Assembly (NCBI GenBank): GCA_965223265.1
Contig: OZ244999.1
Coordinates: forward strand, 1,888,001-1,952,000
Reading direction: 5' to 3'
Source of the DNA: Planctomycetota bacterium
GTDB lineage: Bacteria; Planctomycetota; UBA8108; SXIK01
Length of the DNA stretch: 64,000 bases
A model generated the notes under the pieces. That model was not told the origin of the DNA. It searched no databases and saw only the letters and a list, made by a program, of their open reading frames with translations. Made by a program: the position numbers and the translations under genes. Below, in pieces: positions 10,371 through 26,942 of this stretch (position 1 is its first letter; each line of letters starts with the position of its first letter).

Positions 10371-10377
10371 GAGCAGC

Positions 10378-10405
10378 ATTATGCGCATCTTGACGTGAAA
10401 GGCAA
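10378..10405 (-). promoter_or_regulatory. Possible sigma70-type promoter for the transposase (would give a leaderless mRNA)
   Basis: TTGCCT-16 nt-CATAAT on the minus strand, 7 nt before ATG 10370, with no SD sequence. Confidence 0.3.
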
Positions 10406-13432: not shown

Positions 13433-13711
13433 ATGGACCCCAAGACACGCTTCCGACTTGCTCATCAGCTCGTACTGCATCTCAATGACCTTCATCAGGA
13501 CATCCGCATGTGGGGAGAGCCGTGCGCGAGTCATAGGACAAGACTGAATCACTTCCTGAATCAGTGGGGAAGGGAGCCACGCGCAGAGGAGATTCCGGAT
13601 GAGGCATTCGAACGGGAGGTCTACGACTTTCTGATCGAAGTGGCGGGAGTCGTCGCGCGGAGCACTGCGCGTCCGAAGTCGAAGGCATCGGTCGAAAGTG
13701 CCAACGCTTAG
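13433..13711 (+). CDS. Small hypothetical protein
   Basis: 92-aa ORF with protein-like composition (MDPKTRFRLAHQLVLHLNDLHQD...). No recognised motif. Confidence 0.45.
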   Translation: MDPKTRFRLAHQLVLHLNDLHQDIRMWGEPCASHRTRLNHFLNQWGREPRAEEIPDEAFEREVYDFLIEVAGVVARSTARPKSKASVESANA

Positions 13712-13715
13712 CCGT

Positions 13716-13904
13716 GCTCGTGGCGTTCCCCCAAGGGCCGGACAGGAGTTTTTGAACACGCACCAGGGCTCTCAGGGTACAAAAAAGTCGAAAGGGCCTT
13801 TGAATCCCCGCGAACCTCGTCCGGCCAGGCCGGCGCGAAATGGCCAAACTGGATGAGGATTTGGACGAGCGAAGCCGAGTCCAAATCCTGAGTTCAACTC
13901 GAGG
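13716..13904 (-). repeat. MITE family A copy 2 (partial) with a 49-bp hairpin insert in its TIR
   Basis: The reverse complement aligns with 6752-6764 + 10727-~10860. The extra segment 13851-13899 contains the 11-bp stem aggatttggac/gtccaaatcct. Confidence 0.8.
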
Positions 13905-16697
13905 TTAGGGCGTGACGAACGTCGAGGCGCCACCTTCGACCGCCGAATCGGCGTTCAGCCATGAGTCGAGCACGATCCCTGTATTGGGATCGGTCAGACG
14001 ATTGATCAGCGTGCTGCCGAGCGGGCCGGAGAAGTTCGGGTCGAGCGAACCGTCACGCAGGTTGGGGCCGACGCCAGGCTGCAGGAGTGCGTGATTGTTC
14101 GACCCGTTTGACACACCGGACTGCTCAACGATGCGGTCGAGATTGTAAACGACGTTCCCGAGATTGAAGATCGTCGCCGGTGCATCGTTACAGCCGATGC
14201 GGTTGTTGTCGTTGTCGAGCGGATTGACCGGGCAACCGTTCTGGTCGAAGAGGTAGAGTCCCGATCCCAAGCCAGCAACCATGTGTACCCAGTATGGGGA
14301 ATTCAACTGGTTGCCGGGATTCTGCCCGATGTGGGTGCGTAAGAGATCGAAGTCCAGAGCGGCGAAGTCGTTGGTGGCCATCGCCTGGCGGAAAGCATCG
14401 TACAGCGCGCCTTGGCCACCACTGAGCGACTGCGTCGTCAAATGACACGCAACACAGTAGCGCGGTCCTTCAGCTCCGCCCCCAACCTTGCCTCGGATCG
14501 AATGCGGCATCATGACGTTGTGGCTGAGTGCTCCGAACACGTTGCGGCCGTTGACGCCGGGGTTGTTTCCGTTGCCGTTGCGATCAGAAAACGCGAACAC
14601 CTGGGAGTCGACGTCGTTGAGGTCACGGTATTGAAAGAACGTCGTCGTGTTTGCGGTGATGGGGCTGATTTTGTTGTGCACATTCACACCGAGCTGGAAG
14701 TGAACCGGGTTCTGGTAAACAAAATCGGCGTTGGCCTGTCGAAACACGATTTGCTCGCCGGTGATGTTGCTGAAGTTGTTGCCACGATTGTATTCACCGC
14801 CGAGGTGACACCCGATGCAGTTGTTGGTCCACGAAGCATGACATGAAACGCAGCTCATGTTGTCCATGTGACTGAAACCAGCACCGACCGCTCCAGGAGT
14901 CACCTGTTGTGGGCCGATTCCAGTCGACGGATCTCCGTCGGCACGCCCCATGGAGTACGACGCGCGTTCGCTGTAGACGGCTTCGCCGTTGAACGGATCG
15001 ACGCGTCCGGTGTCGACCACGGTATCACGCGTCTGCGGGATGAAATGTCGATTCCCAGTCAAGCGACTCGTGAGGTAGTAGTTTCCGTCCGACTCAAGCG
15101 TCACATGACGCATGCTGTTTCCCTCGGAATCGACTCCGACTTCAGCCGGCTGACCAGAGTAGGTGATTCCGGTAGTCGTCTGTGCATAGGCGTCGACGGT
15201 CCCGTGACAGTCTTCGCAAGCAATAGATACTGCCTGCTCCTGTCGGCTGACAATCTCACCGTCGGTGCCGATCGTGCCGCCGTGAAGGTCGTGGCTGCCG
15301 TGGCAGTCGATGCAGCCCATGCCCGCATCGTAGTGAACGTCAGCGGGAGTGTCGTCGAGACCGTCACCGTCGTAATCTTCGATCAAGATGTACTGATTGG
15401 CATTGCGGCCGTTGAACGTTCGGTTGTTGACGACTGGATCGAAGAGACGAGTGTCACCAAAGGTATTCCTGAAGAAAGATGGGTTTGCGGGGTACTGCAC
15501 TCGATTACGCAAGTCGGCATTCTGGTCGAGTCTTATACCCCAGAACTGCATCACGGTTCGATTCGATCCCTGATGACAGCCGGCGCAGGTGTAGTCGTCG
15601 ATGCCTTGAACTTGCTCTCCGGTGGCCAGTGTCTGGGCGACGCTGGTGATCATGTGGCGCCGAACGTGCGGTCGCTCGGGGGGATCAATGTCGTCCGGGT
15701 CGAGAGGCTCGTTCTTACGAATGTTTGGATCCGTACTATAGCTCCGGCCATCGAGACTGTAGCGCATGTGACACGCTGTGCAGCCAGACGACCGATAGTC
15801 CCCGTAGCGATTATTCGCTCCGGCGCTGCCGAGGTGGCAATCGCCGCACGTGAACGCGACTTGCTCGTGAAAAACATTCGCCAGAGGCGAGTTCGGAACG
15901 ACGGAGTTGTCCGCCTGCAGGTAGTTGGCGAGCTGCGTCGAGTCATACAGCGGGTTTTCATCCATGTCGAGCGGCCCGGTACCACCGCGGCGACTGTACA
16001 CCGGGAACTCGAGCAAACGCCCAACGGCGCCGAAGCTTGCGGTGTTAAAATCGAAGTTCGCATCCTGAACGGCTCGAAATGCAAAGTCAGACGCCGTGTC
16101 GAAGTAAAGTCCCTGGTTCTCTGGAACCTGATTCGGAAGGCCGAGCGTGAACATGGAGCTCGAGAGGATCCCGACTTCGGTCGCGAGGGCGCTCTTGGCA
16201 ACGCACTCGGCGTGTGACGCATGGCAGGAGCCGCAGCCGCGCTGTTGAGTGACGACGCGCAGGTCTCCGGGATTGATGAATTGCAGGTAGTCGGTCGCGG
16301 TATAGGTGACACCGTTCACCTGGTAGTCGGCGAACTTGTCGATGCCAGTGAGGGTCAGGCGATTGAAGTATGCGAGTCGATTGTTGGTCAGGTTGACTTC
16401 GTCGCCGATTTCCGGAGGTGGCGGAATGTGACTGTCGGAGACGCCAGATCCCTGGCCGTTGCCGCCGTGACACGTTGTGCAGCGAAGCGTCGCGGCGCCA
16501 GGAAACGGGTGCGGATTCTCCAGCCCTGTGCCAGCGTAGTCGTCATGGAGAGCACCGTTGTGGCAGCCCATACATGATTCAGCGGCAGCGGCAACAATCG
16601 TTGGGTTGCCATTGGAATCTGAGTCGAAACACCCTGTTAGCACTGACAGTATCGATACCAGTGCCAGGGTCCCTAGTCCTTGCGTCAGCCGCGACAT
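13905..16697 (-). CDS. Large 11-heme c-type cytochrome lipoprotein
   Basis: 11 CxxCH motifs (CMGCH, CTTCH, CGSCH, CGDCH, CTACH, CAGCH, CIDCH, CEDCH, CVSCH, CIGCH, CVACH). Lipoprotein signal MSRLTQG...SVLTG-C from ATG 16697. Confidence 0.88.
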   Translation of the reverse strand: MSRLTQGLGTLALVSILSVLTGCFDSDSNGNPTIVAAAAESCMGCHNGALHDDYAGTGLENPHPFPGAATLRCTTCHGGNGQGSGVSDSHIPPPPEIGDEVNLTNNRLAYFNRLTLTGIDKFADYQVNGVTYTATDYLQFINPGDLRVVTQQRGCGSCHASHAECVAKSALATEVGILSSSMFTLGLPNQVPENQGLYFDTASDFAFRAVQDANFDFNTASFGAVGRLLEFPVYSRRGGTGPLDMDENPLYDSTQLANYLQADNSVVPNSPLANVFHEQVAFTCGDCHLGSAGANNRYGDYRSSGCTACHMRYSLDGRSYSTDPNIRKNEPLDPDDIDPPERPHVRRHMITSVAQTLATGEQVQGIDDYTCAGCHQGSNRTVMQFWGIRLDQNADLRNRVQYPANPSFFRNTFGDTRLFDPVVNNRTFNGRNANQYILIEDYDGDGLDDTPADVHYDAGMGCIDCHGSHDLHGGTIGTDGEIVSRQEQAVSIACEDCHGTVDAYAQTTTGITYSGQPAEVGVDSEGNSMRHVTLESDGNYYLTSRLTGNRHFIPQTRDTVVDTGRVDPFNGEAVYSERASYSMGRADGDPSTGIGPQQVTPGAVGAGFSHMDNMSCVSCHASWTNNCIGCHLGGEYNRGNNFSNITGEQIVFRQANADFVYQNPVHFQLGVNVHNKISPITANTTTFFQYRDLNDVDSQVFAFSDRNGNGNNPGVNGRNVFGALSHNVMMPHSIRGKVGGGAEGPRYCVACHLTTQSLSGGQGALYDAFRQAMATNDFAALDFDLLRTHIGQNPGNQLNSPYWVHMVAGLGSGLYLFDQNGCPVNPLDNDNNRIGCNDAPATIFNLGNVVYNLDRIVEQSGVSNGSNNHALLQPGVGPNLRDGSLDPNFSGPLGSTLINRLTDPNTGIVLDSWLNADSAVEGGASTFVTP

Positions 16698-17017
16698 TCG
16701 CTTGGCCTTTCGTTTTTCCTCTCGCACAAGCCTTGATGGACTGCCTGAGTCCAGTCGGGGCAAGTGCTACGCGCCTGGAACATCGTCTCGGTGCACGACA
16801 CACGGCGAGACGTGGTCTCCGGTCCCTGCGCAACTCTTCGGCCAAAGCGATCACGAACAGTTCAAGTCGTTGATTAAGCGTCTGTTACGCTCGAGTGCAA
16901 GGCGCTGAGAGTTGCCCCGCTTCCTTCCTAGTGTGGAGAATTCGGACCCATGATGAACGGTGAGATCGAGGGGCGCTTCGATGTGCTTTTTCGGACCATG
17001 TGCGAGACCGGTCACGG

Positions 17018-18301
17018 TCACACTTGTTCCCGAAAGAGGCGGCGGATCAACGCGATCTCATCTGGTTTCAGTCCGCTCTCGGATCGTAACGACTTCAGTT
17101 TCTGAATCGGGAAGTGCTGCAGCTTCCTGACGAGAGAAGTTGTGAGTTCGTCGACGAGCGTGTGACATTGTGGAGGAAAGCGATGCGTGAACGCTTGCAT
17201 CTCGCCAAGTCGAATTTCTTCGAAGCGTTCGAGAAGATGGCGGATGACTGGCTCAACCTGGAGATACGAGCTGTGCGACTCGAACGATTCAATGGCCTGT
17301 GTGACGATATCTTCTGCGTCCGGGACCTCGCCGCGTCGTGCCAAAGCGTTCTCGCGGACTACTGCGTTGAGATCATCGATGTTCAAGAGATGGACACCGG
17401 GAACTGCACGGCACTCGGGATCGACATCGCGCGGCACTGCGAGGTCTACGAGGACGAACGGCCGTTGACCACGCTCCATTTGAATTCGTTCGATTTGACT
17501 CCGCTTCAGCAATAGATGGTCGGAACTGGTGGAGGCGAGGACGACATCGGCGGAGGCCAGTCCCGTCTCGATAGAGGACCATCCGATCGCACGTTCGGCG
17601 CCAAGTTCCCTGACGAGGTCTTGAGCTCGAGAGAGAGTCCGATTGACAACAACGCATTCTTGTACTTCGCCCATAAACGCTCTGGCTGCAGCCCTAGCGA
17701 CGGCGCCAGAGCCGACCACGAGCAGCGATAGATGCTGGCGCTTTCCAAGAGCTTTGCGACAAAGCTGTAGAGCCGCCTGACCCAGCGTCATAGATCCACG
17801 AGAGATCTTTGTCTCAGTGCGAACTCGCTTTCCGACGCGAAGAGCTGCTGGAACCAGGCGGGTGAACTGTTCGCGCGCGCAGTCCGACTCTACAGCTATT
17901 TTCAACGCGGCGCGCAGTTGGCGAAGGATTTCAGATTCACCGATGAGCGCACTGTCGAGACCTGCCGCCAAACGAAAGAGGTGACGGACTGCATCGCGGT
18001 CGCGATGAATGTAGTAATGCTGCAGCGGAATCGGAGCGCTGAGGTCCGGATTCATCAGGTGTCGAACTTGCGCGGCAAACGCCAACGATTGCTGGCGTGC
18101 GTTGTCGGAAAGTGCGTGTTTGTACGGCTCGCAGCGATAGAATTCCGTTCGATTGCACGTCGACACGATCAGATGTTCGGCATTCGAGCTCGATCGAAAC
18201 TCTCCGAGTAATTCCCGCGAGCGCTGAGAGGAGAGTCCCCACTGCTCTCGGATTTCGACAGGGGCTGAGTGATGACTGAGCCCGAACAGGGTGAGTTGCA
18301 T
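17018..18301 (-). CDS. hemA: Glutamyl-tRNA reductase
   Basis: GLSHHSAPVEIRE, catalytic STCNRTE, GLDS..IGE.EI..Q, VVNRT, DLAVPRDVD. Start at ATG 18301 (MQLTLFG). Confidence 0.93.
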   Translation of the reverse strand: MQLTLFGLSHHSAPVEIREQWGLSSQRSRELLGEFRSSSNAEHLIVSTCNRTEFYRCEPYKHALSDNARQQSLAFAAQVRHLMNPDLSAPIPLQHYYIHRDRDAVRHLFRLAAGLDSALIGESEILRQLRAALKIAVESDCAREQFTRLVPAALRVGKRVRTETKISRGSMTLGQAALQLCRKALGKRQHLSLLVVGSGAVARAAARAFMGEVQECVVVNRTLSRAQDLVRELGAERAIGWSSIETGLASADVVLASTSSDHLLLKRSQIERIQMERGQRPFVLVDLAVPRDVDPECRAVPGVHLLNIDDLNAVVRENALARRGEVPDAEDIVTQAIESFESHSSYLQVEPVIRHLLERFEEIRLGEMQAFTHRFPPQCHTLVDELTTSLVRKLQHFPIQKLKSLRSESGLKPDEIALIRRLFREQV

Positions 18302-18578
18302 TCGACGACGCTCCGCGATGTCAGCTGTAGATTCCTCGCTTCTACCGGCAAGAAACGAGCCGGCCAATCGTTGGGGATTTGGACACTCGAGTGAAGTTGT
18401 GAAGCAGTGTGGGCGATGAAAAGCAAGGCGTTGCAAACGAACGGGTTGGAGAGACGTCGCGGCTCACACCTCGCTGACGGTTCGACGTGCCCGAAAGCCA
18501 GATGGGGAGGAAATCCTTGGGTGTGTGCGCCGAAATCTTCCTGCCGCGCCGCCAGTTTCTTTGTAGGCCGCTGCGCGA

Positions 18579-20294
18579 TTACCAGCGGAACGTCAACGCG
18601 AAGTCGACGAGTGCGCGCTCGGCTTCGTCTGTGAAGGCGTACGAGACTCCGGCCGAGAGCGTCCAAGAGGAAGAAAGAACCCAATGGGTACGGACCGTGG
18701 TGTCGACGACCTCAAATTCGTTTCCGAATCCGTCCATCTCGATCAATCGAAACGAGACCGAGGGGTCGATGAGAAGGCGGTGCTTGAGGAAGGGGAGGTG
18801 GGCGGACAGGCGCCCGCCAAAGCCGTCGAGTGTCGGACTTTCGAAGTTAAAAACAGTGATCGTGGCGCTCGCGTCGCTCATAAACGGTAGGCCAAATCGT
18901 GTCAGGCTTACGTTCCAGCGGGGTGAGTAGTCGTCCACTTCCGAATCCGTCACCGAGATCTCTTCGCTCAAGCGGAGATTGAGCGGGAGATCATGAGACG
19001 CGCCCACAAAGTATCTCCAATAGCCTCGGTCCAGGAACTCTAGTTCGTCGAAGAAACTCAGCGGTAAGATTGACCTTTGAGCTGCCGTGTCAGGCAGCTC
19101 GAATCGATCGACACCTGCGCGCAGAGTAAACCACGAAGCGAACGGATAGGACCCGACGATGTCGAGTCGAGTCAATCGTGGTCCGTCTCGAGCTTCAGCA
19201 CCACCAACGTCGATGTCGACCTCGGCACTCGAGAGGATCGACAGCCGGCCGAGCTGTAGTAGCTGTTCGCTAAGCACCGCAAGGCGGTCAGCCTCGCCGT
19301 CGAAAAGAGAAAACAGGACGCCGGCGGTTCCGGAGTAGTAGACAGAGCCGTCGCCACCAGCCTCGACCGTGGTGTACGTTGCCGCTGTTGGCTCCTTGAC
19401 CGAGAGGTCGAGGTTCGACCTGGTCGGTTTCAAGCCGACCATGGCACCGAGATGCCATTTGTCGGTGAGTCGTTTCTCGACTTGAGCGCCATCGAGGAAT
19501 CCAACCGAAGGCAACTCTCGTGGAATGAATCGTCCGATGCGGACGAAGCTATGATCGTCGAATCGACGTGACATGACTAGACGATAGAGTTCGAGTCTCG
19601 GTTCTTGGAAGTCTCGAGTGTCTTCGAAGGCAACCCCATCTCGGTAGATGACGTTGCCAGACCATTCAAGTGACCAAGGCGTACCACGAATTCTGTCGAT
19701 ACTTCCCGACGAACCCACGTGCGTGGCAAACGCGTTGACGTCGTCGTCCGAAGTCAGTTGAAACAGTTGTCGGACGCTGAGTCGACCATGAAAAACGTTC
19801 TCCGTTTCGGTCTCCGCTACTTCTCCCATATCGGGCGGCGCTAGAAGGGGAACGAATTCGCCGTCGCGGTTCTCCCCCTTCAGTGTAGGGGAACGATCGC
19901 GGTCCGTCTCTTCTTTGCGAGTGATGTCACTCACCGTGAGGCTGAGTCGGTCTCCGGATCGCGGGAACACTTGCGGCTTGTCTGATAGGAGGCGGAGAAA
20001 CGTCGAGCGCGACGCGACGTTGACGATTTCGATTCGCGCGAGTTGTCGCCCGTCCATCTCAAGCCACCCTTGAGAGTTCTTCTTGAGTCCAGATTCCGTT
20101 CCTACATCGACGTAGATTCCGTCCGCGGTCTCGTACAGCATTTGGCAGTCGATCTTGATCCGCTCCTCGGCCGCTCCGACAGACCGATGCGAATGCGTCG
20201 CCACAGCGAACGCCAGCAGCGCGAGGGCTGCGGCGAAGCGACTTGGAGTCTGTGAGCGGAGTGGATCTTTTGCCATAGTAGCAAGCACGTTCAT
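18579..20294 (-). CDS. Putative outer-membrane beta-barrel (porin partner of the multiheme cytochromes)
   Basis: Signal peptide, many amphipathic beta-strands, a C-terminal aromatic beta-signal (VDFALTFRW), and position directly after two multiheme genes. Confidence 0.7.
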   Translation of the reverse strand: MNVLATMAKDPLRSQTPSRFAAALALLAFAVATHSHRSVGAAEERIKIDCQMLYETADGIYVDVGTESGLKKNSQGWLEMDGRQLARIEIVNVASRSTFLRLLSDKPQVFPRSGDRLSLTVSDITRKEETDRDRSPTLKGENRDGEFVPLLAPPDMGEVAETETENVFHGRLSVRQLFQLTSDDDVNAFATHVGSSGSIDRIRGTPWSLEWSGNVIYRDGVAFEDTRDFQEPRLELYRLVMSRRFDDHSFVRIGRFIPRELPSVGFLDGAQVEKRLTDKWHLGAMVGLKPTRSNLDLSVKEPTAATYTTVEAGGDGSVYYSGTAGVLFSLFDGEADRLAVLSEQLLQLGRLSILSSAEVDIDVGGAEARDGPRLTRLDIVGSYPFASWFTLRAGVDRFELPDTAAQRSILPLSFFDELEFLDRGYWRYFVGASHDLPLNLRLSEEISVTDSEVDDYSPRWNVSLTRFGLPFMSDASATITVFNFESPTLDGFGGRLSAHLPFLKHRLLIDPSVSFRLIEMDGFGNEFEVVDTTVRTHWVLSSSWTLSAGVSYAFTDEAERALVDFALTFRW

Positions 20295-20324
20295 GTCAGT
20301 CAGGCGATGACGTCGAGTCGAGGT

Positions 20325-21179
20325 TCACCGCCATGCGAAGATGTTGTGGCATTGAGCGCAGTCGGTTGAGAAGTTCTGTGCGACGTGGTTCGGCGCCGCG
20401 ATGTAGTCGTTTTGGTGGCACGCGAAACAATCTGGATTGAGACCGGCGAAGAGACCGTTGACATGGCACTGCGTGCAGTCGAGCCCTGCATGGCCTCCCA
20501 CCAGTGGGAAAAAGTCATGGTTGATCTCGTCCGCGTCCCAGTTGGAGGCGGTGTGGCAGCGTTCGCAGTCGACAACCCAGCCGTTGATCACGTGGTTGGG
20601 GAATGCCCTCGCGGCATCCAGCTGGTGGCACCCGTGACAATCAACGGGGGCACCGCGAAAGTCGCCGGATGTGGCTCGATCGTGGCAAGACTCACACGGA
20701 GCGAGGGCGTGAAGCCCGACGAGCGAGAATCGAGTCCGTGCGTGTTCGCCGATGATTCCTGTGGGATGCCATGTGCTTTGGTTGTGACATCGGGTGCATT
20801 CGCTACCGAGAGATCCCTTGTGCGAGTCGACGTGACAGCCGCCGCAGCCGCGGCTTAGGTAGACTTCGACGGGGCCGCGGTCGTTGTGGCACCTCAGGCA
20901 GGCGGCAGTGGTGTGCGCCCCTTCAAGTCGGTATCCCGTTTCTTTCTCGTGGTCAAAGTGGAAGTCTTCCCGGAGAACATCCCAGCGCTCCGGAATGTGG
21001 CAGATGCCGCAATCGCCAGGAAACTGGGTGTGGGGAACCATTGGACCCCACTTTCGACTCCAGCTCTGCTGCGGAACCACTGTCTCACATGTCAAAGAGA
21101 CAATGGCCCAACCAGCCCAGAGGACGACGGGAAAGAGCTTGCCGAAGCGACTAGCGCTGAGCGTCTTCGGGAATCTCAT
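20325..21179 (-). CDS. Decaheme c-type cytochrome
   Basis: 10 CxxCH motifs. GGAG SD before ATG 21179. Hydrophobic N-terminal signal ending VSLTC. Confidence 0.88.
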   Translation of the reverse strand: MRFPKTLSASRFGKLFPVVLWAGWAIVSLTCETVVPQQSWSRKWGPMVPHTQFPGDCGICHIPERWDVLREDFHFDHEKETGYRLEGAHTTAACLRCHNDRGPVEVYLSRGCGGCHVDSHKGSLGSECTRCHNQSTWHPTGIIGEHARTRFSLVGLHALAPCESCHDRATSGDFRGAPVDCHGCHQLDAARAFPNHVINGWVVDCERCHTASNWDADEINHDFFPLVGGHAGLDCTQCHVNGLFAGLNPDCFACHQNDYIAAPNHVAQNFSTDCAQCHNIFAWR

Positions 21180-22893
21180 GACAATCTCCACACACTCTTC
21201 CGATCGGCTTGTACTGCACGACGGCGCCGCCGTTGGGAAGTGCGACCTCCATGTGACAACGAGAACACTCAACCTTCGCGTGCACGCCTTCTAGGGAAAA
21301 ACGGGCTTGCGTGTTGTGATCGAAGATTGTTTCTTTCCAACTCTCAGTCGATGCGTGACAACGGCTGCAATTCTCTTGCCCGGACTCTGTGAATTGACCG
21401 TAGTGGGCGTCTTTGTGGCAGGAAGAACACTCCGTTGGCGTCTTTTTGTAGCGCCTCACGAGTGCGGAAGTGTCATGTAGGGGTGTGAGAATCTCGACAT
21501 GGCAGTCGTTGCACTCGGCCTTTGCATGAGCTCCTTTGAGCGGATACGACGTGCGCCGATCGTGATCGAAGGGACGAATCGAGAAGGTGTCGGCAACGCT
21601 TCCATGGCATGCGTCACAGTCTCCTTCGACCAGAGTGTCATGGAACTGATCGCCATGTGGGTTCTTGTGACAGAGCTTGCACTCTCGAGTGGTACCAACG
21701 AACTGCCGCGTGTGTGTTTGGAGGTTCGACGTGTGGCACGCAACGCATGCAGTTGCGGCGTGAGACCCTGTTAGCTCGTACACCTTTGCGTGATCGTCGT
21801 GGCTGAACAGGGTTGGCAAGAAACTATGGCTGTCGTGACAGTCGAGACAACGACCATACCTGTCGCTGAATTGTCCGCGATGGACATCCTCGTGACAGCC
21901 GCGACACATATCGGGCCGTCGCTGGTACCCAGGCGACGTCGGGTCGGGATGACGTTCGCTGAACGGCAGATCTGACGGATGACATCGATCGCATGAGACG
22001 CGGTCGTGCGGATGCGTCAAAGGAAAACCGGTCGCCGCGTGCTTCTCCGTTGTCATCCTGGTGATCGCCTGCCTCCACTGCGGGTGCGTTCCGTCATGAC
22101 AGCTTGAACAGTCGTCCGTGAATGGAGCGTGGTGCGGTGAGTTGTGGCACTCTACGCATGTCGTTCCTTGCACCTTGTCGAAGGGAAATGGCATCGGTTT
22201 TTTCGGTGTGTCGGGATGTGGAAGTACATGGCAGTCGCTGCATGGAAGCTGTTCGTGGCCTCCTTTGAGGGGAAAGTGCGTATCGTGTTGGAACTCAGTC
22301 GTTGGTCGAAAGACTTCTTGGCCATGGCAAGAGCTGCACTCACTCGATAGGCCGTCTGAGTGGATGTCTTCGTGGCAGCTGATGCAGTCTTGGTTTAAGC
22401 CGAGGAATGAGCGCTTGCGCGGGAAGTTGGGAAAACTGGGAAGAGAAAACGTGTCATCGCGTTGGGCGACGTGACATTCCTGACACTCCAGCCGAGCGTG
22501 CTTTCCGGTCAGATCGAACTGAACGTGTGGATGTTTGAACGCTTGGGAGCTCTGGGCTCCCCATGACAGCTTACTAACGAGCGGGAAGTCGGTGCCGAAG
22601 TGCTCGCCGTGGCACCCAGCGCACGAGACCTCCTTGCCCCCGAGTAGGAAGTGGTGGTATCCCGACTTCTCGTTCAGCTGCGAGGCGATCTCGGTATGAC
22701 AGTTGAGACACGCTTTTCCAACTCCGGACTCATCGTGACAGTTGCTGCAGCTTGCGAGCGTCGACATCCCTTCGATGCTTCCGTGCGTAGCCGACAGCTG
22801 GTTTGGCATCGGGGCGTTCACGGTCACCAGGGCGCCGAGGAGAAAGATGAGGACGGTGCCAATGATGAGGGGGGTGCGGGGATTCAGAAGCAT
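21151..22893 (-). CDS. 20-heme c-type cytochrome with N-terminal membrane anchor or signal
   Basis: 20 CxxCH motifs. ATG 22893 overlaps the upstream TGA (TGATG coupling). Confidence 0.9.
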   Translation of the reverse strand: MLLNPRTPLIIGTVLIFLLGALVTVNAPMPNQLSATHGSIEGMSTLASCSNCHDESGVGKACLNCHTEIASQLNEKSGYHHFLLGGKEVSCAGCHGEHFGTDFPLVSKLSWGAQSSQAFKHPHVQFDLTGKHARLECQECHVAQRDDTFSLPSFPNFPRKRSFLGLNQDCISCHEDIHSDGLSSECSSCHGQEVFRPTTEFQHDTHFPLKGGHEQLPCSDCHVLPHPDTPKKPMPFPFDKVQGTTCVECHNSPHHAPFTDDCSSCHDGTHPQWRQAITRMTTEKHAATGFPLTHPHDRVSCDRCHPSDLPFSERHPDPTSPGYQRRPDMCRGCHEDVHRGQFSDRYGRCLDCHDSHSFLPTLFSHDDHAKVYELTGSHAATACVACHTSNLQTHTRQFVGTTRECKLCHKNPHGDQFHDTLVEGDCDACHGSVADTFSIRPFDHDRRTSYPLKGAHAKAECNDCHVEILTPLHDTSALVRRYKKTPTECSSCHKDAHYGQFTESGQENCSRCHASTESWKETIFDHNTQARFSLEGVHAKVECSRCHMEVALPNGGAVVQYKPIGRVCGDCHEIPEDAQR

Positions 22894-24014
22894 CAGTTCC
22901 CCCCTCCAAAGATCCACAGATTGCCAAACTTCACAGCAATGAGGACGTGGAAGATCACAGCTGCAAGGAGGACGATGGCAAGCCAGCGATGAAGAAATCT
23001 CCACGCACCCATGAGCTTGTGCAGTTCACGGTAGCGAATCATCCACTCGCGCTCGGAGCACAGCCTCCTGACGAGCAGTAGAATGCTCTCGCCTCGTTCG
23101 CCGAGTTCGGGGTTGCGGAGAATTGATCGCTTGACGCGTTCGTACTCGCGTCGGGTCTCGTGGTCGCCTCGCAAAACTCGTATGATCGCTTGGATTAACC
23201 ATGGAGAACGTCCGCCTTTCGGAGTCGGTGCGTCGATGCGGAGCAGCTTGGGACTGACCCCCAGCGACATCAGCTTTCTCCGATAGACGATCAAGCGACG
23301 TCTGACGTCCTCAAATTCGAGTTCGCGCCCTTCGATTGAGCGTGGTACATGAGCGAAGAGGTAGCGCCCGATCACGCCGCTGGCGACGACGATGGCCATG
23401 GCGACCAGGGCGAGAGTTCCCACGGCGCTTGTTGGAACGAATGCTGCGTGAAAGAGCACGATAGCTGGTCCCAAGACGCCAGCGAACACGTGGAAGCCCA
23501 TCCACGCCTGCAGACTGCCGATACGGGCCAGGCTGACGAAGCGCTTCCGCAGAAGATACGCCAGGCTGGCGATCATGATGAGAGTACCGCCGATTCCGAG
23601 CGTCAGACCCAGCGGGCCTGACGGTCGCAGCAAGTGGTGATAGTAGTGGAATGGACGGTTTGCAGCCGGCAGGACATAGTAGCCCCAGCCGACAACGAAA
23701 AGAGTGAGCAACAACCCTGCAGCGGTGATCGCTGCGAATCTAGCGAGCCGCACGGGAGCGAGAAGCGTCCCAGCTGCAGCTTCCTCGAGTGCAATCTCTT
23801 CGCCGATCTCAGCGTCGAGCTCTCTTTCGATCTGTGCTAGTTCACGTTCGCGTCTCTGGACTCGTTTGGCGAGGAACTCATCCATTCGTCGGACGGCGGC
23901 GATGTCGACGTCGTCTGGAACGATCACGACCGGGATGTCGCCTTGGACATTGGACGTGTCGAAGGACGTAGCTGGTCGTCGTCGTCGTCGTCGTCCGTGT
24001 CGCGGTTCGCTCAT
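22893..24014 (-). CDS. Ferric-reductase/NOX-like di-heme b integral membrane protein
   Basis: About five TM helices with two H-x13-H pairs (FHVFAGVLGPAIVLFH and LHRWLAIVLLAAVIFH). ATGA overlap with the upstream reductase. Confidence 0.7.
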   Translation of the reverse strand: MSEPRHGRRRRRRPATSFDTSNVQGDIPVVIVPDDVDIAAVRRMDEFLAKRVQRRERELAQIERELDAEIGEEIALEEAAAGTLLAPVRLARFAAITAAGLLLTLFVVGWGYYVLPAANRPFHYYHHLLRPSGPLGLTLGIGGTLIMIASLAYLLRKRFVSLARIGSLQAWMGFHVFAGVLGPAIVLFHAAFVPTSAVGTLALVAMAIVVASGVIGRYLFAHVPRSIEGRELEFEDVRRRLIVYRRKLMSLGVSPKLLRIDAPTPKGGRSPWLIQAIIRVLRGDHETRREYERVKRSILRNPELGERGESILLLVRRLCSEREWMIRYRELHKLMGAWRFLHRWLAIVLLAAVIFHVLIAVKFGNLWIFGGGN

Positions 24015-25447
24015 GATTCCGTCGTCGTCACAGTCGCTGGTGATTCCGTTTCGGTCGACCCGTCACTTTCGCCACCGAACTGTATGCCAAGGCTATGTAG
24101 GAGCGGATAGGGTGGTTCGCCACCTGCGAAGATCAACGTGTAGTCATTCGGCAACTGTTTGTTGCGGCGTACGTCGTCTTTGCTGATCGAAAGCGTGACG
24201 CTGTCGGGATCGATTCTTTCCACGACGGAATTGAAGACTATCTTGACGCGTCCGTCTCTTGCATATCGCTCGATGCGTTCTTGGTTGCGTGCCTTCAGAC
24301 GAAAGAAGTTGTGGCGCCGATAGGATAGAGTGACAGTGTTTCCGTTTTGCTCCGCTAGTGCTGTAGCCGCTTCGATTGCGCTGTCGCCACCACCCACGAC
24401 GAGAATCTTCTCGTTGGTGTAGGTGGCCGCATCGACGAGTTGGTAGAGAACTTTCTCTTGATCCTCGCCGGGCACGCCGAGGCGTCGTGGAGTGCCGCGT
24501 CTTCCGAGCGTGAGAACAATTCGTTTGGCTCGAACGACGCCTTTTGAAGTCTGCGCCTCGAAGCATCCCTTGTCATGTTTGGCGCCGAGGAGCTTCACTC
24601 CAGAGTGGATTGTCAAGTCGAACTTTCGCGCGACGCTTTCCCAAAACTCGATCAACTCCTCCTTGAGGAACTCTCGTTTCTTGACGGGGCCGTAGAGCGG
24701 TAGGGTGACCGGACCCGTCAGCGTCAGCTTGCGACGTGGGTACTTTCGTACGGTGCCGCCTATGTCGTCCATGTCGATGGTGACGTGACTTAGGCCGCAT
24801 TCCTTGGCCCTGAGCGACGCAGCGAACCCGGCTGGGCCCGCGCCAACGATGAGGACGTCGAAGACGCCCGGGCGACGCGTTGACCCTCGGCTTCCTAGTT
24901 CGAGAGCGATCGCGCTGACGGCCTTCGTACCTTGTTCGACCGCGATGCGGATGAGTGCGAAACCGCCGAGCTCTCCGGCGATGTAGACTCCAGGAACGGA
25001 GGTCTCGAGCGACTCGGAGAGAGACGGAATATCTGTCCGAGACGAGATGTCTCCAAGGCTTACTTTAACCGCGTTGACCGGGCACACCTCTTCGCACAGC
25101 GCATGCCCGATGCAGCGTGAACCGTGGATGACTCGAGCAATGCCATCGACCAGTCCGAGGACACCATCCTCAGGACATGCGGCAACACAGCTACCGCAGC
25201 CGATGCACGCTTGTTCATCAATCTGAGGATGCTGCGCGATCGGACGGTCAGTGCCGCGTTCCTTGGCGTCACGCAGGTCTGCGATGACGCGTTCTCTCTG
25301 CAGGTCCTCGATCTTCTGCTGCCAAACACTAAGAAAAACGAGAAGTGCTGTCAGCAGAATGAGGACGCCTAGGACGATCAGAAAGTTCAACCTTACACTC
25401 CTCGATGCCGTCTCCCCTAGAACTGAGATCGGCAGAACAGAAACCAT
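24011..25447 (-). CDS. Membrane-anchored 2[4Fe-4S] ferredoxin fused to a TrxR-fold FAD/NAD(P)H oxidoreductase
   Basis: N-terminal TM helix, CIGCGSCVAACP and CIGHALCEEVCP, GAGPAG, GGGDSAIEAA, SYRR. The start is uncertain (ORF open from 25537). Confidence 0.85.
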   Translation of the reverse strand: MVSVLPISVLGETASRSVRLNFLIVLGVLILLTALLVFLSVWQQKIEDLQRERVIADLRDAKERGTDRPIAQHPQIDEQACIGCGSCVAACPEDGVLGLVDGIARVIHGSRCIGHALCEEVCPVNAVKVSLGDISSRTDIPSLSESLETSVPGVYIAGELGGFALIRIAVEQGTKAVSAIALELGSRGSTRRPGVFDVLIVGAGPAGFAASLRAKECGLSHVTIDMDDIGGTVRKYPRRKLTLTGPVTLPLYGPVKKREFLKEELIEFWESVARKFDLTIHSGVKLLGAKHDKGCFEAQTSKGVVRAKRIVLTLGRRGTPRRLGVPGEDQEKVLYQLVDAATYTNEKILVVGGGDSAIEAATALAEQNGNTVTLSYRRHNFFRLKARNQERIERYARDGRVKIVFNSVVERIDPDSVTLSISKDDVRRNKQLPNDYTLIFAGGEPPYPLLHSLGIQFGGESDGSTETESPATVTTTES

Positions 25448-25844
25448 TCTGCTGCCGCGAGTTGCTGCAAAGGCTATTCCGCATAAATGTCCGCTGACCA
25501 GCGACGAGCATCCGTCGTCGCGTACCGTTTTCAGCACGTAAAAAGCGGGTGCTGCGAGGCGAATTAGGCCTATCCAAGATCGCTATGGGTGGACGACCCT
25601 GGAATTCTGCCGTGAGAATTGTTGCGCCGATTCTCGGAACAGCTGCGGCGCGAGTAGCGGTAAAAACGCTGTAACCCACCTGCCGGATATCGTGAGACCC
25701 AAACGAAGCCGTTGCTGCTGAACTCCACGCTGTTTTCGCTCGCCTTTTCTTGTCGCCATGGGGTCTGATGTCGCGGTCGCTCGTTTTCCCAAGCTGCCGT
25801 TTCAGAGCCACGGCGGAAGTGTTGAACTCCTCTGAGGTGCTTCC

Positions 25845-26942
25845 ATGACTTCTACTTTTCACGTCAACCTGGTGAGAGTGGTCGTGACAGGGGCGGCGCT
25901 TTCGTGGTCTTCCTTGTCCGCCCGTGGGCCTGACTCACAAGCGTCGGACTCGACCTACGTTTGGGATCAGGTCACTTCGGACGCTCCTTTCGCTCCGCGC
26001 GACGGCGCAGGCGCACTCGTGTTTAAGGAGCGCATGTGGCTGCTCGGTGGCTGGAATCCTCGCGACAAGAAGCATTTTCCACGCATCTGCAACAATGAGG
26101 TGTGGAGCTCGGAGAATGGCTCGGATTGGACGCTCGTGAAGCCGAACACGTTTCTCGACGCGAGCTTCGACGCCAAGTCCGATTGGGAGGGGCGACACAC
26201 TGCTGGCTACGTCGTTTTCAAAGGCAAGATGTGGATCGTTGGAGGGGACGCTAACCAGGGGCACTACCAGAACGACATCTGGAACTCTGCCGACGGGCGA
26301 GTGTGGACCCGAATCGCCGACACGGTCGAGTGGGGGCCGCGCGTGCTTCACACAACCGTGGTGTTTGACGGGAAGATCTGGGTGATAGGTGGTCAGACCC
26401 TGCCGCAGTTTGCTGCGGCTGATCACCGTTTCTATGACGACGTCTGGAATTCAACGGACGGTGTTGATTGGCAGCAGGTCCGCGTCAGCGGCGCACCGCA
26501 GCCCGCACCGCATTGGGCGCCACGTGGCATGATCGGTGGGAATGTCGTGTTCAAGGGGCGTGTGTGGCTGCTCGGAGGGGGCGTCTATGACACTCCGAAG
26601 TTTCCGAAGCGGAAGTTTTTTCAAGACGTATGGAGCTCGCGTGATGGATTGCGGTGGACACGTCACGTCGAAAAGGCCCCATGGACGCCAAGGCAGTACC
26701 ACGAAGTCGCCGTTTTCGACGAGCGTATGTGGCTCCTCGAAGGCTGGAATCAGAGCAATCGACGCGATGTTTGGCATTCCGAAGATGGCGTTTCTTGGCG
26801 CGAGGTCCCGAACACACCGTGGGCACCACGACACGCCGCGAGCGTCTTCGTCTACAAGGACGCCCTGTGGGTCGTTGCTGGAAACAACATGCAGAGCGAT
26901 GTGTGGAAGCTCCAGCGGCGAGAGTCGACGGGGTCGCCTTGA
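25845..26942 (+). CDS. Secreted kelch-like beta-propeller protein
   Basis: Signal peptide and six repeats of the form W.PR....VF..KMW..GG...NDVW.S.DG..W. Confidence 0.8.
   Translation: MTSTFHVNLVRVVVTGAALSWSSLSARGPDSQASDSTYVWDQVTSDAPFAPRDGAGALVFKERMWLLGGWNPRDKKHFPRICNNEVWSSENGSDWTLVKPNTFLDASFDAKSDWEGRHTAGYVVFKGKMWIVGGDANQGHYQNDIWNSADGRVWTRIADTVEWGPRVLHTTVVFDGKIWVIGGQTLPQFAAADHRFYDDVWNSTDGVDWQQVRVSGAPQPAPHWAPRGMIGGNVVFKGRVWLLGGGVYDTPKFPKRKFFQDVWSSRDGLRWTRHVEKAPWTPRQYHEVAVFDERMWLLEGWNQSNRRDVWHSEDGVSWREVPNTPWAPRHAASVFVYKDALWVVAGNNMQSDVWKLQRRESTGSP

Follow-up and report, generated by a model that had tools for sequence, protein, structure and literature searches.

A conserved planctomycete gene cluster predicted to encode an electron conduit from cytoplasmic NAD(P)H across the cell envelope

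We infer, with a rough probability of 55%, that the A-B-C-D-E core of a planctomycete gene cluster, together with an optional lipoprotein cytochrome (G), forms an envelope-spanning electron conduit which starts at cytoplasmic NAD(P)H. The reading is built on domains, motifs, a barrel model, synteny and gene fusions, all of which were observed directly. The conserved cluster appears to be a variant of porin-cytochrome conduits that have been predicted before, with the NAD(P)H input as its new element, and we found no published description of an NAD(P)H-fed variant of such a conduit.

Results

Layout of the gene cluster

The window (the whole stretch of DNA analysed, 64 kb of a 9.18-Mb genome) contains seven open reading frames in the cluster, all on the minus strand, which agrees with the seven co-oriented genes of the initial annotation:

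24011..25447, minus strand: gene A, 478 aa with an ATG start at 25447 (NAD(P)H flavoprotein-ferredoxin)
22893..24014, minus strand: gene B, 373 aa, five predicted membrane helices
21151..22893, minus strand: gene C, 580 aa, 20 CxxCH motifs after an N-terminal membrane helix
20325..21179, minus strand: gene D, 284 aa, 10 CxxCH motifs
18579..20294, minus strand: gene E, 571 aa, signal peptide followed by a beta domain, a linker and a barrel
17018..18301, minus strand: HemA, glutamyl-tRNA reductase, 427 aa from Met46 of the open reading frame
13905..16697, minus strand: gene G, 930 aa, acidic, 11 CxxCH motifs, lipoprotein signal

The first four genes do overlap, as had been described: ATGA is common to A and B (4-nt overlap), TGATG is common to B and C (1-nt overlap, with GGAGGGGGG 5' of the junction), and C and D overlap by 29 nt, with GGAG 5' of the junction. 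D is separated from E by 30 nt, E from HemA by ~277 nt and HemA from G by ~320 nt. The 41 c-type haem motifs claimed for the cluster were all recovered as CxxCH (20 in C, 10 in D and 11 in G), and a motif scan gave no CxxxCH, CxxxxCH or CxxCK variants. The sole other CxxCH-bearing open reading frame of at least 60 aa in the window encodes a PSCyt protein with two motifs; the window also encodes PSCyt1/PSCyt2/PSD1 and DUF1501 genes. No NapC/CymA-, ImcH- or CbcL-like cytochrome is present within the 64 kb, again as first noted. The PSCyt, PSD1 and DUF1501 genes, together with best matches to Planctomycetota, speak for a planctomycete origin.

A flavoprotein-ferredoxin coupled to a predicted dihaem membrane protein

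Gene A has the parts expected of the membrane-anchored FAD/NAD(P)H reductase-ferredoxin that it was first taken to be. A single N-terminal membrane helix (residues 23-41, nt 25325-25381, by hydropathy; an alternative GTG start upstream at 25537 is possible) is followed by a two-cluster ferredoxin domain (residues 74-128, nt 25064-25228; Fer4 dicluster, Fer4_10 6e-11), with CxxCxxCxxxCP as its first motif and CxxHxxCxxxCP as its second, and by a TrxR/YpdA-like FAD and NAD(P)H domain (residues 196-457; Pyr_redox_3 3.5e-41). Among solved structures, those closest to it are YpdA/Bdr 7a7b (1.4e-21), thioredoxin reductases and TrxR-like ferredoxin-NADP reductases; judged by sequence, A most resembles YpdA-type disulfide and thioredoxin reductases and not any known haem reductase. 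Across 25 sequences GxGxxG, GGGDSA, S-Y-R and the seven cluster cysteines are invariant and H115 nearly so, the homologues keep a short N-terminus, helix and basic stretch, and the charge distribution predicts that the soluble part lies on the cytoplasmic side.

The two H-x13-H pairs claimed for B are found as W171-x3-H175-x13-H189 in helix 3 (nt 23439-23513) and W338-x3-H342-x13-H356 in helix 5 (nt 22926-23009), with S-G-x-x-G in helix 4 (nt 23355-23426). Prediction and charge distribution place the N-terminus and long loops inside and the C-terminus outside. H175/H189 and H342/H356 are all invariant in 26 relatives, with zero substitutions across 268 aligned family rows, and B is predicted to hold two stacked b haems. 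Nineteen of these 26 relatives match DUF4405 and 11 match Ferric_reduct (E<=0.01); B of the window itself scores 22.3 bits against DUF4405, under the 26.7 cut-off. The model of B is all-helical (pLDDT 81), and Foldseek gave no solved fold relative for it (best E 0.54). Because of the sub-cut-off scores and the lack of a fold match, it is motifs, and weak profile matches of its relatives, that support the kinship of B with NOX, FRE and MsrQ.

The proposed link to NAD(P)H was much strengthened by fusions of A to B. Among 42 related loci fetched with a B profile, 12 carry A and B in a single open frame, and Fer4 and Pyr_redox_3 precede the B domain in 15 of the 17 representatives of at least 700 aa among the best 150 of the B family; a further search gave eight A-B fusions among 73 matches. 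Of 37 fused rows, 36 retain all four B histidines and the last has a gap, and the predicted topology of both proteins, with regard to their cytoplasmic sides, agrees with the fusions, which point to a NOX-like NAD(P)H input over a quinone input. One locus (L042) has an A-B fusion alone, with neither cytochrome nor barrel nearby, so the A-B unit can serve other ends. On proteobacterial plasmids the position of A is occupied by a second, unrelated NAD(P)H flavoprotein: in Rhizorhabdus the gene for a 636-aa FAD_binding_6, NAD_binding_1 and Fer2 protein lies 5' of a B-family member, with the gene for a 7-CxxCH cytochrome coming next, and by annotation an Alteromonas plasmid has the same gene order.

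Cytochromes and barrel

C matches Cytochrome_C7 (2e-25) and Cytochrom_c3_2 (1e-17); its homologues carry 16-26 CxxCH motifs each, most of those listed have an N-terminal helix followed by a P-G-x-L-x3-H stretch, and C is predicted to be an inner-membrane-anchored periplasmic haem wire. In D all 10 CxxCH motifs and 10 further histidines are invariant (21 sequences), and Cys31 (nt 21087-21089) follows a hydrophobic N-terminus, as it does in aligned homologues, which makes D a probable lipoprotein.

The initial annotation had staked its reading on E modelling as a beta-barrel. The AlphaFold2 model (mean pLDDT 81.1, pTM 0.66) has a 22-strand barrel (residues 167-570, nt 18585-19796), preceded by a small beta domain (residues 45-122, nt 19929-20162) and a low-confidence linker, and its top Foldseek matches in the PDB are outer-membrane barrels, namely FimD/PapC ushers, MOMP, AlgE and Occ porins (E 5e-10 to 1e-6, TM 0.2-0.5). 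E is thus predicted from its model to be an outer-membrane channel. It has no match to a Pfam or NCBIfam family, and its closest Atlas clusters are unnamed and for the most part planctomycetal. Pairwise modelling of neighbouring proteins, which had been suggested as a check, was run for D with E and gave a median ipSAE of 0.49 over three runs (0.01, 0.71 and 0.49; best control 0.00), one of which thus scored close to zero. The support mark used is reached by 58 of 80 solved complexes and two of 110 mismatched pairs, but no more than seven of the 80 solved complexes have values of 0.60 or less, as do the two mismatches above the mark. Agreement between runs covers at least 1% of contacts, partner pLDDT is at least 61, and the modelling lends weak support to D as a candidate partner of E.

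Conservation of the module

Synteny of the five-gene core, another check proposed at the outset, proved extensive: 33 of the 42 loci (Planctomycetota, Kiritimatiellales and Verrucomicrobiota) carry all of B, C, D and E as a group, and A is present in the cluster in 32 of these 33, the 33rd being cut inside B. The other nine comprise four contig ends, two degraded clusters and three single cases (an undetectable E, a spurious 47-residue match and the lone A-B fusion). No other gene family around the related loci is conserved in more than nine of them. A cultured strain of the Bacteroidota, Emticicia oligotrophica, also carries the module, on a plasmid, and System II cytochrome c biogenesis genes adjoin the cluster in Emticicia and in one six-locus lineage. 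The suggestion that gene order mirrors the path from cytoplasm to surface did not hold up, as the order is not conserved, being AB-C-E-D or B-C-D-E-A elsewhere, and the argument is peculiar to the source genome. A lies 3' of E in four loci and on the opposite strand in one, and hhalign identifies the barrel of rearranged loci as a homologue of E (probability 99.9, E 3.8e-36).

HemA and the lipoprotein cytochrome

HemA was correctly identified (316.9 bits against TIGR01035, cut-off 209.55). It had been counted within the conduit, from which we removed it: none of the 42 related loci has a HemA match, and because of this absence we regard it as a local insertion.

G is an 11-haem lipoprotein by motif, as annotated, with an L-T-G-C lipobox (Cys23, nt 16629-16631) whose cysteine is kept in six of six homologues. 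Homologues of G with 11 CxxCH lie immediately 3' of E in L003, L004, L008, L010 and L012, and in L039, where E was undetected, one follows an intervening sensor-kinase gene. The assignment of G to the conduit therefore stood in part, for the six of 42 loci with this lipoprotein cytochrome and not for the other 36. In loci without G, D has 13-30 CxxCH motifs vs. 10 here, which is expected if the outer end is supplied by either D or G. G scores 73 bits against the NCBIfam ExtM model (cut-off 800), and sequence searches gave no informative solved relative. By Atlas features it resembles clusters of ExtM-like and MtrC-domain cytochromes, which are leads only. From these features G is a candidate terminal cytochrome, possibly surface-exposed.

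Discussion

Relation to known systems

In MtrCAB of Shewanella and in MtoAB/PioAB, a periplasmic decahaem cytochrome, an outer-membrane barrel and a surface lipoprotein cytochrome are encoded side by side, the MtrB barrel has 26 strands and the Mtr conduit is quinol-fed through CymA. The present cluster is alike in having decahaem, barrel and lipoprotein cytochrome genes as neighbours, but its proteins fail the family models, which bears out the earlier statement that it is not of the MtrA/MtrB type: D has no match to the DmsE/MtrA model and C scores 50.7 bits (cut-off 192.2), whilst E has no match to MtrB/PioB and models with 22 strands. In the Hmc/Tmc complexes of sulfate reducers a membrane cytochrome b links a cytoplasmic iron-sulfur protein to a large multihaem cytochrome in the periplasm, as proposed here, with quinone not obligatory; they differ in belonging to other protein families, without an NAD(P)H flavoprotein or outer-membrane barrel, and in an inward flow from periplasmic hydrogen oxidation, whereas outward flow is proposed here.

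The architecture of membrane protein, porin and large cytochrome is already predicted in PMC5566968 as PCC3/PCC4, porin-cytochrome clusters from the genomes of neutrophilic iron oxidisers, all still uncharacterised. Their inner-membrane protein (~300 aa, five helices) is defined by the motifs of B, with WX3HX13H in both helix 3 and helix 5 and SGxxG in helix 4 between them, and is accompanied by a ~21-haem periplasmic cytochrome and a porin gene, with an extracellular cytochrome added in PCC3; PCC4 subgroup II also has Planctomycetes among its carriers, and shares a cytochrome with 10 haems and an Fe-S gene ahead of the one for the membrane protein (PMC5566968). In that account the membrane protein is modelled as exchanging with quinones, and flow is inward from Fe(II); here, by comparison with the published description, the membrane protein has a conserved Fer4 and FAD/NAD(P)H partner, to which it is frequently fused.

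NADPH oxidases and ferric reductases (the FRD superfamily) and MsrQ-Fre are described as moving electrons from NAD(P)H via flavin and two stacked b haems to a non-cytoplasmic acceptor, with His pairs spaced by 13 residues in the third and fifth helices, as in B, and a reductase either fused or separate. They differ in having six helices vs. five in B, an FNR-type domain after the haem domain, where A is TrxR/YpdA-like with a two-cluster ferredoxin and precedes it, and O2, an Fe(III) chelate or MsrP as acceptor instead of a multihaem wire. NAD(P)H use has been proposed for MsrQ-like proteins with NAD-binding partners. DUF4405 cytochromes, for one member of which haem b binding is reported from experiment, share four central histidines and a proposed role in transmembrane electron transfer, but have six helices and are described from flavinylation (ApbE) or ferrosome clusters (bioRxiv 10.1101/2024.03.13.584918); no ApbE or FMN-binding gene is conserved around our 42 loci.

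Proposed conduit and alternatives

The scheme that follows, including its cofactor occupancy, partner contacts, direction, acceptor and independence of quinone, is deduced from the results above. A, tethered to the inner face of the membrane by one helix, would oxidise NAD(P)H (probably NADPH) on FAD and pass single electrons to two iron-sulfur clusters. B, bound to A and in many relatives fused to it, would take them through the inner membrane by way of a stacked pair of b haems, the inner one with H175/H342 and the outer one with H189/H356 as ligands, in the manner of NADPH oxidases and ferric reductases. C, anchored in the same membrane, would relay them through the periplasm on ~20 c haems, and D, as a 10-haem lipoprotein, would lead them into or through the 22-strand outer-membrane barrel E, with final delivery to an external acceptor (Fe(III)/Mn(IV) minerals, humic quinones and chelated iron are candidates) by G or, where G is missing, by a haem-rich C-terminal extension of D. 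Electron arrival at the cell surface is a prediction of this scheme. Outward flow is likely; it would conserve no energy and would be assisted by the membrane potential. A quinol dehydrogenase could also feed C, since the window covers 64 kb of a 9.18-Mb genome and such a gene might lie beyond it.

To our knowledge, all well-studied porin-cytochrome systems draw on quinol, and B might accordingly be a quinol/quinone-reactive dihaem cytochrome b which joins the quinone pool to C-D-E, with A as an accessory input (e.g. an NAD(P)H:quinone-type feeder) or regulator and not an obligatory donor. Nine of 26 B relatives weakly match Ni_hydr_CYTB, a quinone-reactive cytochrome b family, and the five helices, SGxxG and two WX3HX13H motifs of B are the basis of the quinone-active proposal in PMC5566968. 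Quinone coupling nonetheless seems unlikely to us, given that 32 of 33 loci keep A, that 12 of 42 loci and 15 of 17 long members have it fused to B, and that its position on proteobacterial plasmids is filled by an NAD(P)H flavo-iron-sulfur protein of a second type. No quinone-site motif was noticed in an analysis not directed at such motifs, and the sequence of B may still hold a quinone site. The cytochromes might instead use electrons from NAD(P)H to drive a reaction in the periplasm or outer membrane, such as oxidant/metalloid detoxification or the reduction of imported chelated iron, with E as a substrate channel and not a cytochrome sheath. Among named clusters, those closest to G by features are "selenite/tellurite reduction operon cytochrome ExtM" (score 0.92, a lead only), in line with its 73-bit ExtM match, the proteobacterial plasmid trios have no barrel, one adjoining heavy-metal regulator and efflux genes and another hydrogenase genes, and the model supports D-E binding weakly; however, the barrel is retained next to D in 33 of 42 loci, at least ~30 haems far exceed the need of a short periplasmic hand-over, and D is longer where G is missing, so that we hold such a local role to be distinctly improbable.

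Electron uptake from outside the cell, with Fe(II), a mineral in reduced form, a cathode or another cell as donor and with A reducing NAD(P)+, is highly improbable in our estimation: inward flow to a -320 mV couple would run uphill in redox terms from ordinary donors and also against a membrane potential that is negative inside, the cluster has no energy-coupling subunit, and the carriers are MAGs of PVC groups, which we take to be mostly heterotrophs. What speaks for it is that PCC3/PCC4 come from the genomes of iron oxidisers and are depicted as carrying electrons inwards (PMC5566968), and that multihaem wires are in principle reversible (PMC10734462). The operation in either direction which the initial annotation allowed is unlikely on the same bioenergetic grounds; its overall interpretation survives in the conserved module, the barrel, the non-Mtr type and the NAD(P)H link, and not in HemA, gene order or bidirectionality. 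If the conduit from NAD(P)H to an external acceptor is as proposed, its gain to the cell would be the regeneration of NAD(P)+ in fermentative or oxygen-limited growth, or reductive iron acquisition.

Gene content and layout of the cluster

The seven genes described in the initial annotation are indeed present on the minus strand of the window, arranged head to tail, at positions 13905-25447. Genes C and D, which encode multihaem cytochromes, lie between B and E; the remaining five are as follows.

24011-25447, minus strand: gene A, with one N-terminal hydrophobic helix, a ferredoxin domain for two clusters and a flavin/NAD(P)H domain (Pyr_redox_3)
22893-24014, minus strand: gene B, with five predicted helices and two His pairs of 13-residue spacing
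18579-20294, minus strand: gene E, a predicted outer-membrane barrel matching no Pfam or NCBIfam family at E ≤ 0.01
17018-18301, minus strand: HemA, a glutamyl-tRNA reductase (TIGR01035, 316.9 bits against a cut-off of 209.55)
13905-16697, minus strand: gene G, with a lipoprotein signal at its start and 11 CxxCH motifs

There are 20 CxxCH motifs in C, 10 in D and 11 in G, variant haem motifs are absent from these three genes, and the only other open-reading frame of at least 60 aa with CxxCH in the 64-kb window is a planctomycete-type PSCyt protein with two motifs. The first four genes, A to D, overlap as had been claimed, by 4 nt (A/B), 1 nt (B/C) and 29 nt (C/D); Shine-Dalgarno-like purine runs precede C and D, a gap of 30 nt separates D from E, and HemA is separated from its two neighbours by about 277 and 320 nt. 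A promoter/terminator scan of 13500-26000 found fewer sites than in shuffled sequences (1 vs. 3.5 and 7 vs. 11.2) and gave no operon boundaries. The flanks of the cluster are unrelated to it, being a Kelch protein on the opposite strand and a 3-keto-disaccharide hydrolase. A 449-aa plus-strand open-reading frame antisense to G (14868-16217) is best regarded as a probable artefact caused by the GC-richness of the coding strand.

Planctomycete marker domains are present in the window, which also holds a PSCyt1/PSCyt2/PSD1 protein with a DUF1501 partner (1988-6751), a pairing typical of planctomycetes whose function is unknown, and, at 59502-60890, another DUF1501 gene. A group II intron reverse transcriptase/maturase (7269-8576, plus strand) sits beside a DDE transposase (8625-10388, minus strand) a few kb from the cluster. 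There are two giant FG-GAP repeat proteins of 1818 aa (39407-44863) and 1283 aa (29914-33765), the larger of which unusually combines these repeats with a PPDK_N (pyruvate phosphate dikinase ATP-binding) domain. At 46956-51995, an OpuA-type ABC transporter is flanked by two probable ergothioneine synthesis genes, one for an EgtD-like histidine methyltransferase (Methyltransf_33, 1.6e-113) and the other for an EgtB-like DinB_2 + FGE-sulfatase protein.

Conservation of a five-gene module

A single B-profile scan over species-representative genomes yielded 42 loci (L001-L042), which were examined by tblastn, ORF-level BLAST and HMM searches. Homologues of B, C, D and E occur together in 33 of the 42; in two of these, one gene (E in L018, where a contig end cuts it, and D in L037) was picked up solely by tblastn. 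The proposal that the core genes co-occur in other genomes is thereby borne out. The other nine comprise loci at contig ends (L001, L015, L021 and L040), degraded loci (L009 and L025), one with no detectable barrel (L039), one with a 47-residue, chance-like match (L041) and a lone A-B fusion (L042). A accompanies the four genes in 32 of the 33 loci, and the remaining locus begins inside B. The carriers are mostly Planctomycetota (Pirellulales, Planctomycetaceae and Phycisphaerales), with Kiritimatiellales, Pontiella and two Verrucomicrobiota; the arrangement is real, not a product of chance, and is conserved across phyla.

HemA had been counted as part of the conduit, a membership that we rejected as it has a homologue in none of the 42 loci, while G occurs in six, always 3' (downstream) of the core. 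The module is thus A-B-C-D-E with G as an optional addition, and HemA is a local insertion. The reading of gene order as a map of the envelope from cytoplasm outward also fails, because other orders occur among the 42 loci: one group is ordered AB-C-barrel-D, with a barrel homologous to E (hhalign probability 99.9, E 3.8e-36, 527 columns), and A follows E in four loci. When the flanking open-reading frames were clustered all against all, no further family recurred in more than nine loci. In six related loci of one lineage, including L028 (972-4323), the region immediately upstream of the cluster carries ResB-like/CcsA-like genes for system II cytochrome c biogenesis.

A proposed split or fused reductase at the inner membrane

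The closest solved relatives of A are YpdA/Bdr, thioredoxin reductases and TrxR-like ferredoxin-NADP reductases. It scores below the cut-off for the YpdA bacillithiol disulfide reductase (TIGR04018, 158.6 vs. 339.9 bits), and inspection of its flavin domain found no CxxC motif. Across 25 sequences the flavin GxGxxG, the GGGDSA dinucleotide motif, the following S-Y-R...R and seven cluster cysteines are invariant; by analogy with thioredoxin reductase, we take the S-Y-R to be an NADPH signature. The second cluster motif (within residues 74-128, 25064-25228) reads C-x2-H-x2-C-x3-C-P, with H115, nearly invariant in the 25 homologues, in the place of the second cysteine, which suggests from sequence a cluster that is either His-ligated or held by three cysteines. 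It is possibly the exit cluster towards haem b, a role that we assume for a His-ligated cluster by analogy with hydrogenase small subunits.

B carries the motifs W171-x3-H175-x13-H189, S212-G-x-x-G216 and W338-x3-H342-x13-H356. All four histidines, both tryptophans, G213 and G216 are invariant in 26 relatives, and in an alignment of the wider family (268 rows) no substitution affects W338 or any of the four histidines, while W171 is replaced once, by V. The charge distribution places the N-terminus, loop 156-169 and the 120-residue loop 221-336 inside and the C-terminus outside, so that helices 3 and 5 would run parallel and could hold an inner and an outer haem. Assignment of B to a named family is soft: B itself reaches 22.3 bits against DUF4405 (PF14358), below the curated cut-off of 26.7, and its 26 relatives match DUF4405 (19), Ferric_reduct (11), Ni_hydr_CYTB (9) and PepSY_TM (1) at E ≤ 0.01. 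The best relative matches Ferric_reduct (PF01794) at 8.4e-7, the B of the window having no match to it at E ≤ 0.01. Binding of haem b has been demonstrated for a DUF4405 protein (bioRxiv 10.1101/2024.03.13.584918). Foldseek comparison of the B model (pLDDT 81) with the PDB, a method that is insensitive for helix bundles, gave a best E of 0.54 with none ≤ 0.001, and a NOX/STEAP-like fold found no support in this same low-sensitivity search; a profile of the 26 relatives likewise matched nothing meaningful among PDB sequences (best E 0.17). The family is large: a cut-off of E ≤ 1e-3 gives 4,353 representative clusters and one of E ≤ 1e-30 gives 522. Some of its distant members are in Myxococcota, Alphaproteobacteria and Bacteroidetes MAGs, all labelled “hypothetical protein”.

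In 12 of the 42 loci A runs on into B in a single open frame of about 740-800 aa; in three of these the A part is itself cut or frameshifted. Gene calls made independently, in protein libraries, are in agreement. Of the best 150 B-family representatives, 17 are at least 700 aa long; 15 of these have Fer4 and Pyr_redox_3 ahead of the B domain and the remaining two have zero Pfam matches. Another B-family search added eight further A-B fusions among 73 matches, one of them carrying the source annotation “thioredoxin reductase/ferredoxin”. All four histidines persist in 36 of 37 rows of fused sequences, the other row being a gap. Gene fusion is a classical sign of physical cooperation between two proteins, and here it places the catalytic part of A and the N-terminus of B on the same, cytoplasmic, side. 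The fusion of L042 (8603-10867) is solitary: cytochrome and barrel genes are absent within 10 kb of it, and its neighbours are Glu/Leu dehydrogenase-like, QueF-like and beta-lactamase-fold genes.

B shares with the ferric reductase/NOX superfamily two predicted bis-His haem sites, with histidines 13 apart on helices 3 and 5. In that superfamily FNR-type FAD and NAD domains follow the haem domain, whereas the partner of B is a Fer4 + Pyr_redox_3 protein, either separate or N-terminal. FNR-type partners do accompany more distant B-family genes on plasmids, and MsrQ-like proteins with NAD-binding partners have been proposed to use NAD(P)H (accessible part of 10.1101/2021.01.07.425746). Taken together, the inner-membrane step resembles an NAD(P)H:haem b reductase of NOX type, in split or fused form.

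Plasmid-borne relatives in other phyla

When B was searched by tblastn against 72,556 plasmids, 40 records matched, the best being pEMTOL02 of the cultured Bacteroidota Emticicia oligotrophica DSM 17448 (NC_018749.1, 5824-17622). The gene order there is CcsA, B-like, A-like, two cytochrome c3 family genes and lastly a gene for a hypothetical protein of 538 aa. The B-like hypothetical protein has two W-x3-H-x13-H motifs, the A-like gene, annotated “NAD(P)-binding domain-containing protein”, shares 41% identity with A (E 3e-106) and has Fer4 + Pyr_redox_3, the “cytochrome c3 family” proteins carry 23 and 40 CxxCH, and the 538-aa protein matches both E-family profiles (1.9e-13 and 8.7e-16). Presence of the module on this plasmid implies horizontal mobility, and the cultured carrier makes the idea directly testable.

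The other matches are mostly to sphingomonad and Alteromonas plasmids. We examined two proteobacterial regions, one from Rhizorhabdus and one from Alteromonas (L044, CP021182.1, 4950-8307; L045, NZ_CP012203.1, 3926-7409), and found a trio in which an FNR-type flavo-2Fe-2S protein (~640 aa) is accompanied by a B-family membrane protein and a multihaem cytochrome of small size. In Rhizorhabdus a 636-aa FAD_binding_6 + NAD_binding_1 + 2Fe-2S protein is followed by the B-family gene and a cytochrome with 7 CxxCH, and by annotation the Alteromonas macleodii trio has the same order. One trio adjoins a heavy-metal regulator and efflux genes, the other hydrogenase genes. Two unrelated types of NAD(P)H flavo-iron-sulfur protein therefore occur beside a B-family gene, as expected if B takes electrons from a cytoplasmic reductase.

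The proposed path through the periplasm and the outer membrane

The 20-haem cytochrome C begins with an N-terminal membrane helix, then P-G-x-L-x3-H in most homologues and then its first haem motifs; with the helix just before them, these haems should lie at the outer face of the inner membrane, by the outer haem of B. In D all 10 CxxCH and 10 further histidines are conserved, and a cysteine follows its hydrophobic N-terminus. The five aligned D proteins from G-bearing loci end after haem 10, while the 15 aligned from loci without G have a C-terminal extension; open-reading frames labelled D in loci without G hold 13-30 CxxCH. The longer D of such loci (L002, L005, L013, L016 and others) often ends in a conserved three-haem tail.

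E had been proposed to be a beta-barrel, and its AlphaFold2 model (mean pLDDT 81, pTM 0.66) upholds this. The alignment held 31 relatives, nearly all from Planctomycetota MAGs and one from Kiritimatiellales, and the model shows a signal helix and a small beta domain (45-122), after which a linker of low confidence leads to 22 consecutive strands (167-570). The top Foldseek matches in the PDB are all outer-membrane barrels (FimD/PapC ushers, Campylobacter MOMP, AlgE and Occ porins) with E-values from 5e-10 to about 1e-6; TM-scores are low (0.2-0.5), as expected because barrel size differs. No MtrB chain is among the 50 Foldseek matches listed, and the closest Atlas clusters are unnamed Planctomycetota proteins without a Pfam family. 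Complex prediction for D and E gave a median ipSAE of 0.49 (runs 0.01, 0.71 and 0.49) against 0.00 for the best control, with at least 1% of contacts agreeing between runs and a partner pLDDT of at least 61. Of 80 solved complexes 58 reached the mark used, as did 2 of 110 mismatched pairs, and scores of 0.60 or less came from only seven of the 80 solved complexes and from both mismatches that passed; the prediction tool grades the result as weak support for binding of D to E. For the lipoprotein G, the Geobacter ExtM model (NF040943) gave 73.2 bits, short of its cut-off of 800, PDB sequences gave a single match over a 24-residue haem-motif stretch, and no informative relative was found by NCBIfam, PDB sequence or Atlas feature comparison.

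Relation to known porin-cytochrome systems

That the conduit is not of the MtrA/MtrB type, as initially proposed, agrees with comparison to MtrAB/MtoAB/PioAB: the DmsE/MtrA decahaem model (TIGR03508) does not match D at E ≤ 0.01 and gives C 50.7 bits against a cut-off of 192.2, and E, with its 22-strand model, has no Pfam or NCBIfam match at E ≤ 0.01 that would place it in the MtrB/PioB barrel family. The closer likeness is to PCC3/PCC4, the predicted porin-cytochrome gene clusters of iron oxidisers (PMC5566968). B has the features by which their inner-membrane protein is defined (five helices, SGxxG in helix 4 and WX3HX13H in helices 3 and 5). In PCC3/PCC4 the porin gene lies beside genes for large periplasmic multihaem cytochromes, with an extracellular cytochrome in PCC3, and the architecture here falls in that class, with 20 haem motifs in C, 10 in D, the barrel E and in G a candidate extracellular 11-haem lipoprotein. 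The cluster is best filed as a PCC3/PCC4-like porin-cytochrome system, a likeness drawn from published descriptions.

In its accessible text, PMC5566968 places Planctomycetes among the carriers of PCC4 subgroup II and notes that an Fe-S gene precedes the gene of the membrane protein and that the two are in some cases annotated as a single gene. PCC3 was still called a predicted complex from bioinformatic analyses in 2023 (available part of PMC10734462). A different-looking porin-cytochrome cluster of Verrucomicrobia has an 8-haem periplasmic protein and, in the portion of PMC5615132 available, an unspecified inner-membrane step, and a lake survey records unexplained “novel” multihaem clusters in Planctomycetota (bioRxiv 10.1101/2022.03.26.485925, available part). 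Our search of full-text literature found no description of the present NAD(P)H-reductase-containing cluster; the PMC5566968 figure on PCC4 redox-gene domains may show an A-like protein. The accessible parts of 10.64898/2026.05.27.727921 and 10.1101/2020.04.01.018762 hold nothing on such a cluster.

Direction of flow and significance

The published model of PCC3/PCC4 would read a cluster of this kind otherwise. PMC5566968 likens the membrane protein to ferric reductase/NOX domains yet, in its accessible text, proposes a quinone-active cytochrome b, and it proposes inward flow from Fe(II); flow in either direction had been suggested for the present cluster. An electron passing from cytoplasmic NAD(P)H to the outside would leave its proton inside and move negative charge outward, a step that would be driven by both the redox drop and the membrane potential and would conserve no energy, as in NADPH oxidases. 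Reverse flow would have to climb both, and as the cluster contains no energy-coupling subunit, outward flow is the likely mode of the chain; on this bioenergetic argument the either-direction proposal finds no support. Plausible pay-offs would be NAD(P)+ regeneration in fermentation or oxygen limitation and the reductive solubilisation of iron.

Our boldest reading is that the cluster is the first example of a porin-cytochrome conduit fed directly by a NOX-like, quinone-independent NAD(P)H dehydrogenase and, by extension, that all five-helix W-x3-H-x13-H membrane cytochromes are exporters and not quinone enzymes; we give it a probability of roughly 0.4. If true, one dedicated machine would empty cytoplasmic NAD(P)H onto extracellular acceptors through both diderm membranes, in a conduit widespread in the Planctomycetota-Verrucomicrobiota-Kiritimatiellota and mobile enough to reach a Bacteroidota plasmid. 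The W-x3-H-x13-H family would then be cytoplasm-to-periplasm exporters with interchangeable flavo-iron-sulfur reductases, including the PCC3/PCC4 proteins of iron oxidisers should these prove homologous, and the quinone-based PCC3/PCC4 model would need to be revised. It would also offer a mechanistic reading for the “novel multihaem clusters” of lake Planctomycetota, as described in the available part of 10.1101/2022.03.26.485925. For engineered cells meant to export reducing power, the natural A-B fusions (about 750 aa) are attractive as single-gene parts. To our knowledge, all well-studied extracellular electron transfer routes in diderm bacteria begin at the quinone pool. A route started by NAD(P)H would, if true, be a different bioenergetic design, an electron vent in which NAD(P)+ is regenerated at the cost of membrane potential. 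Many PVC bacteria are fermentative polysaccharide degraders, and such a vent would suit that way of life as well as reductive iron acquisition.
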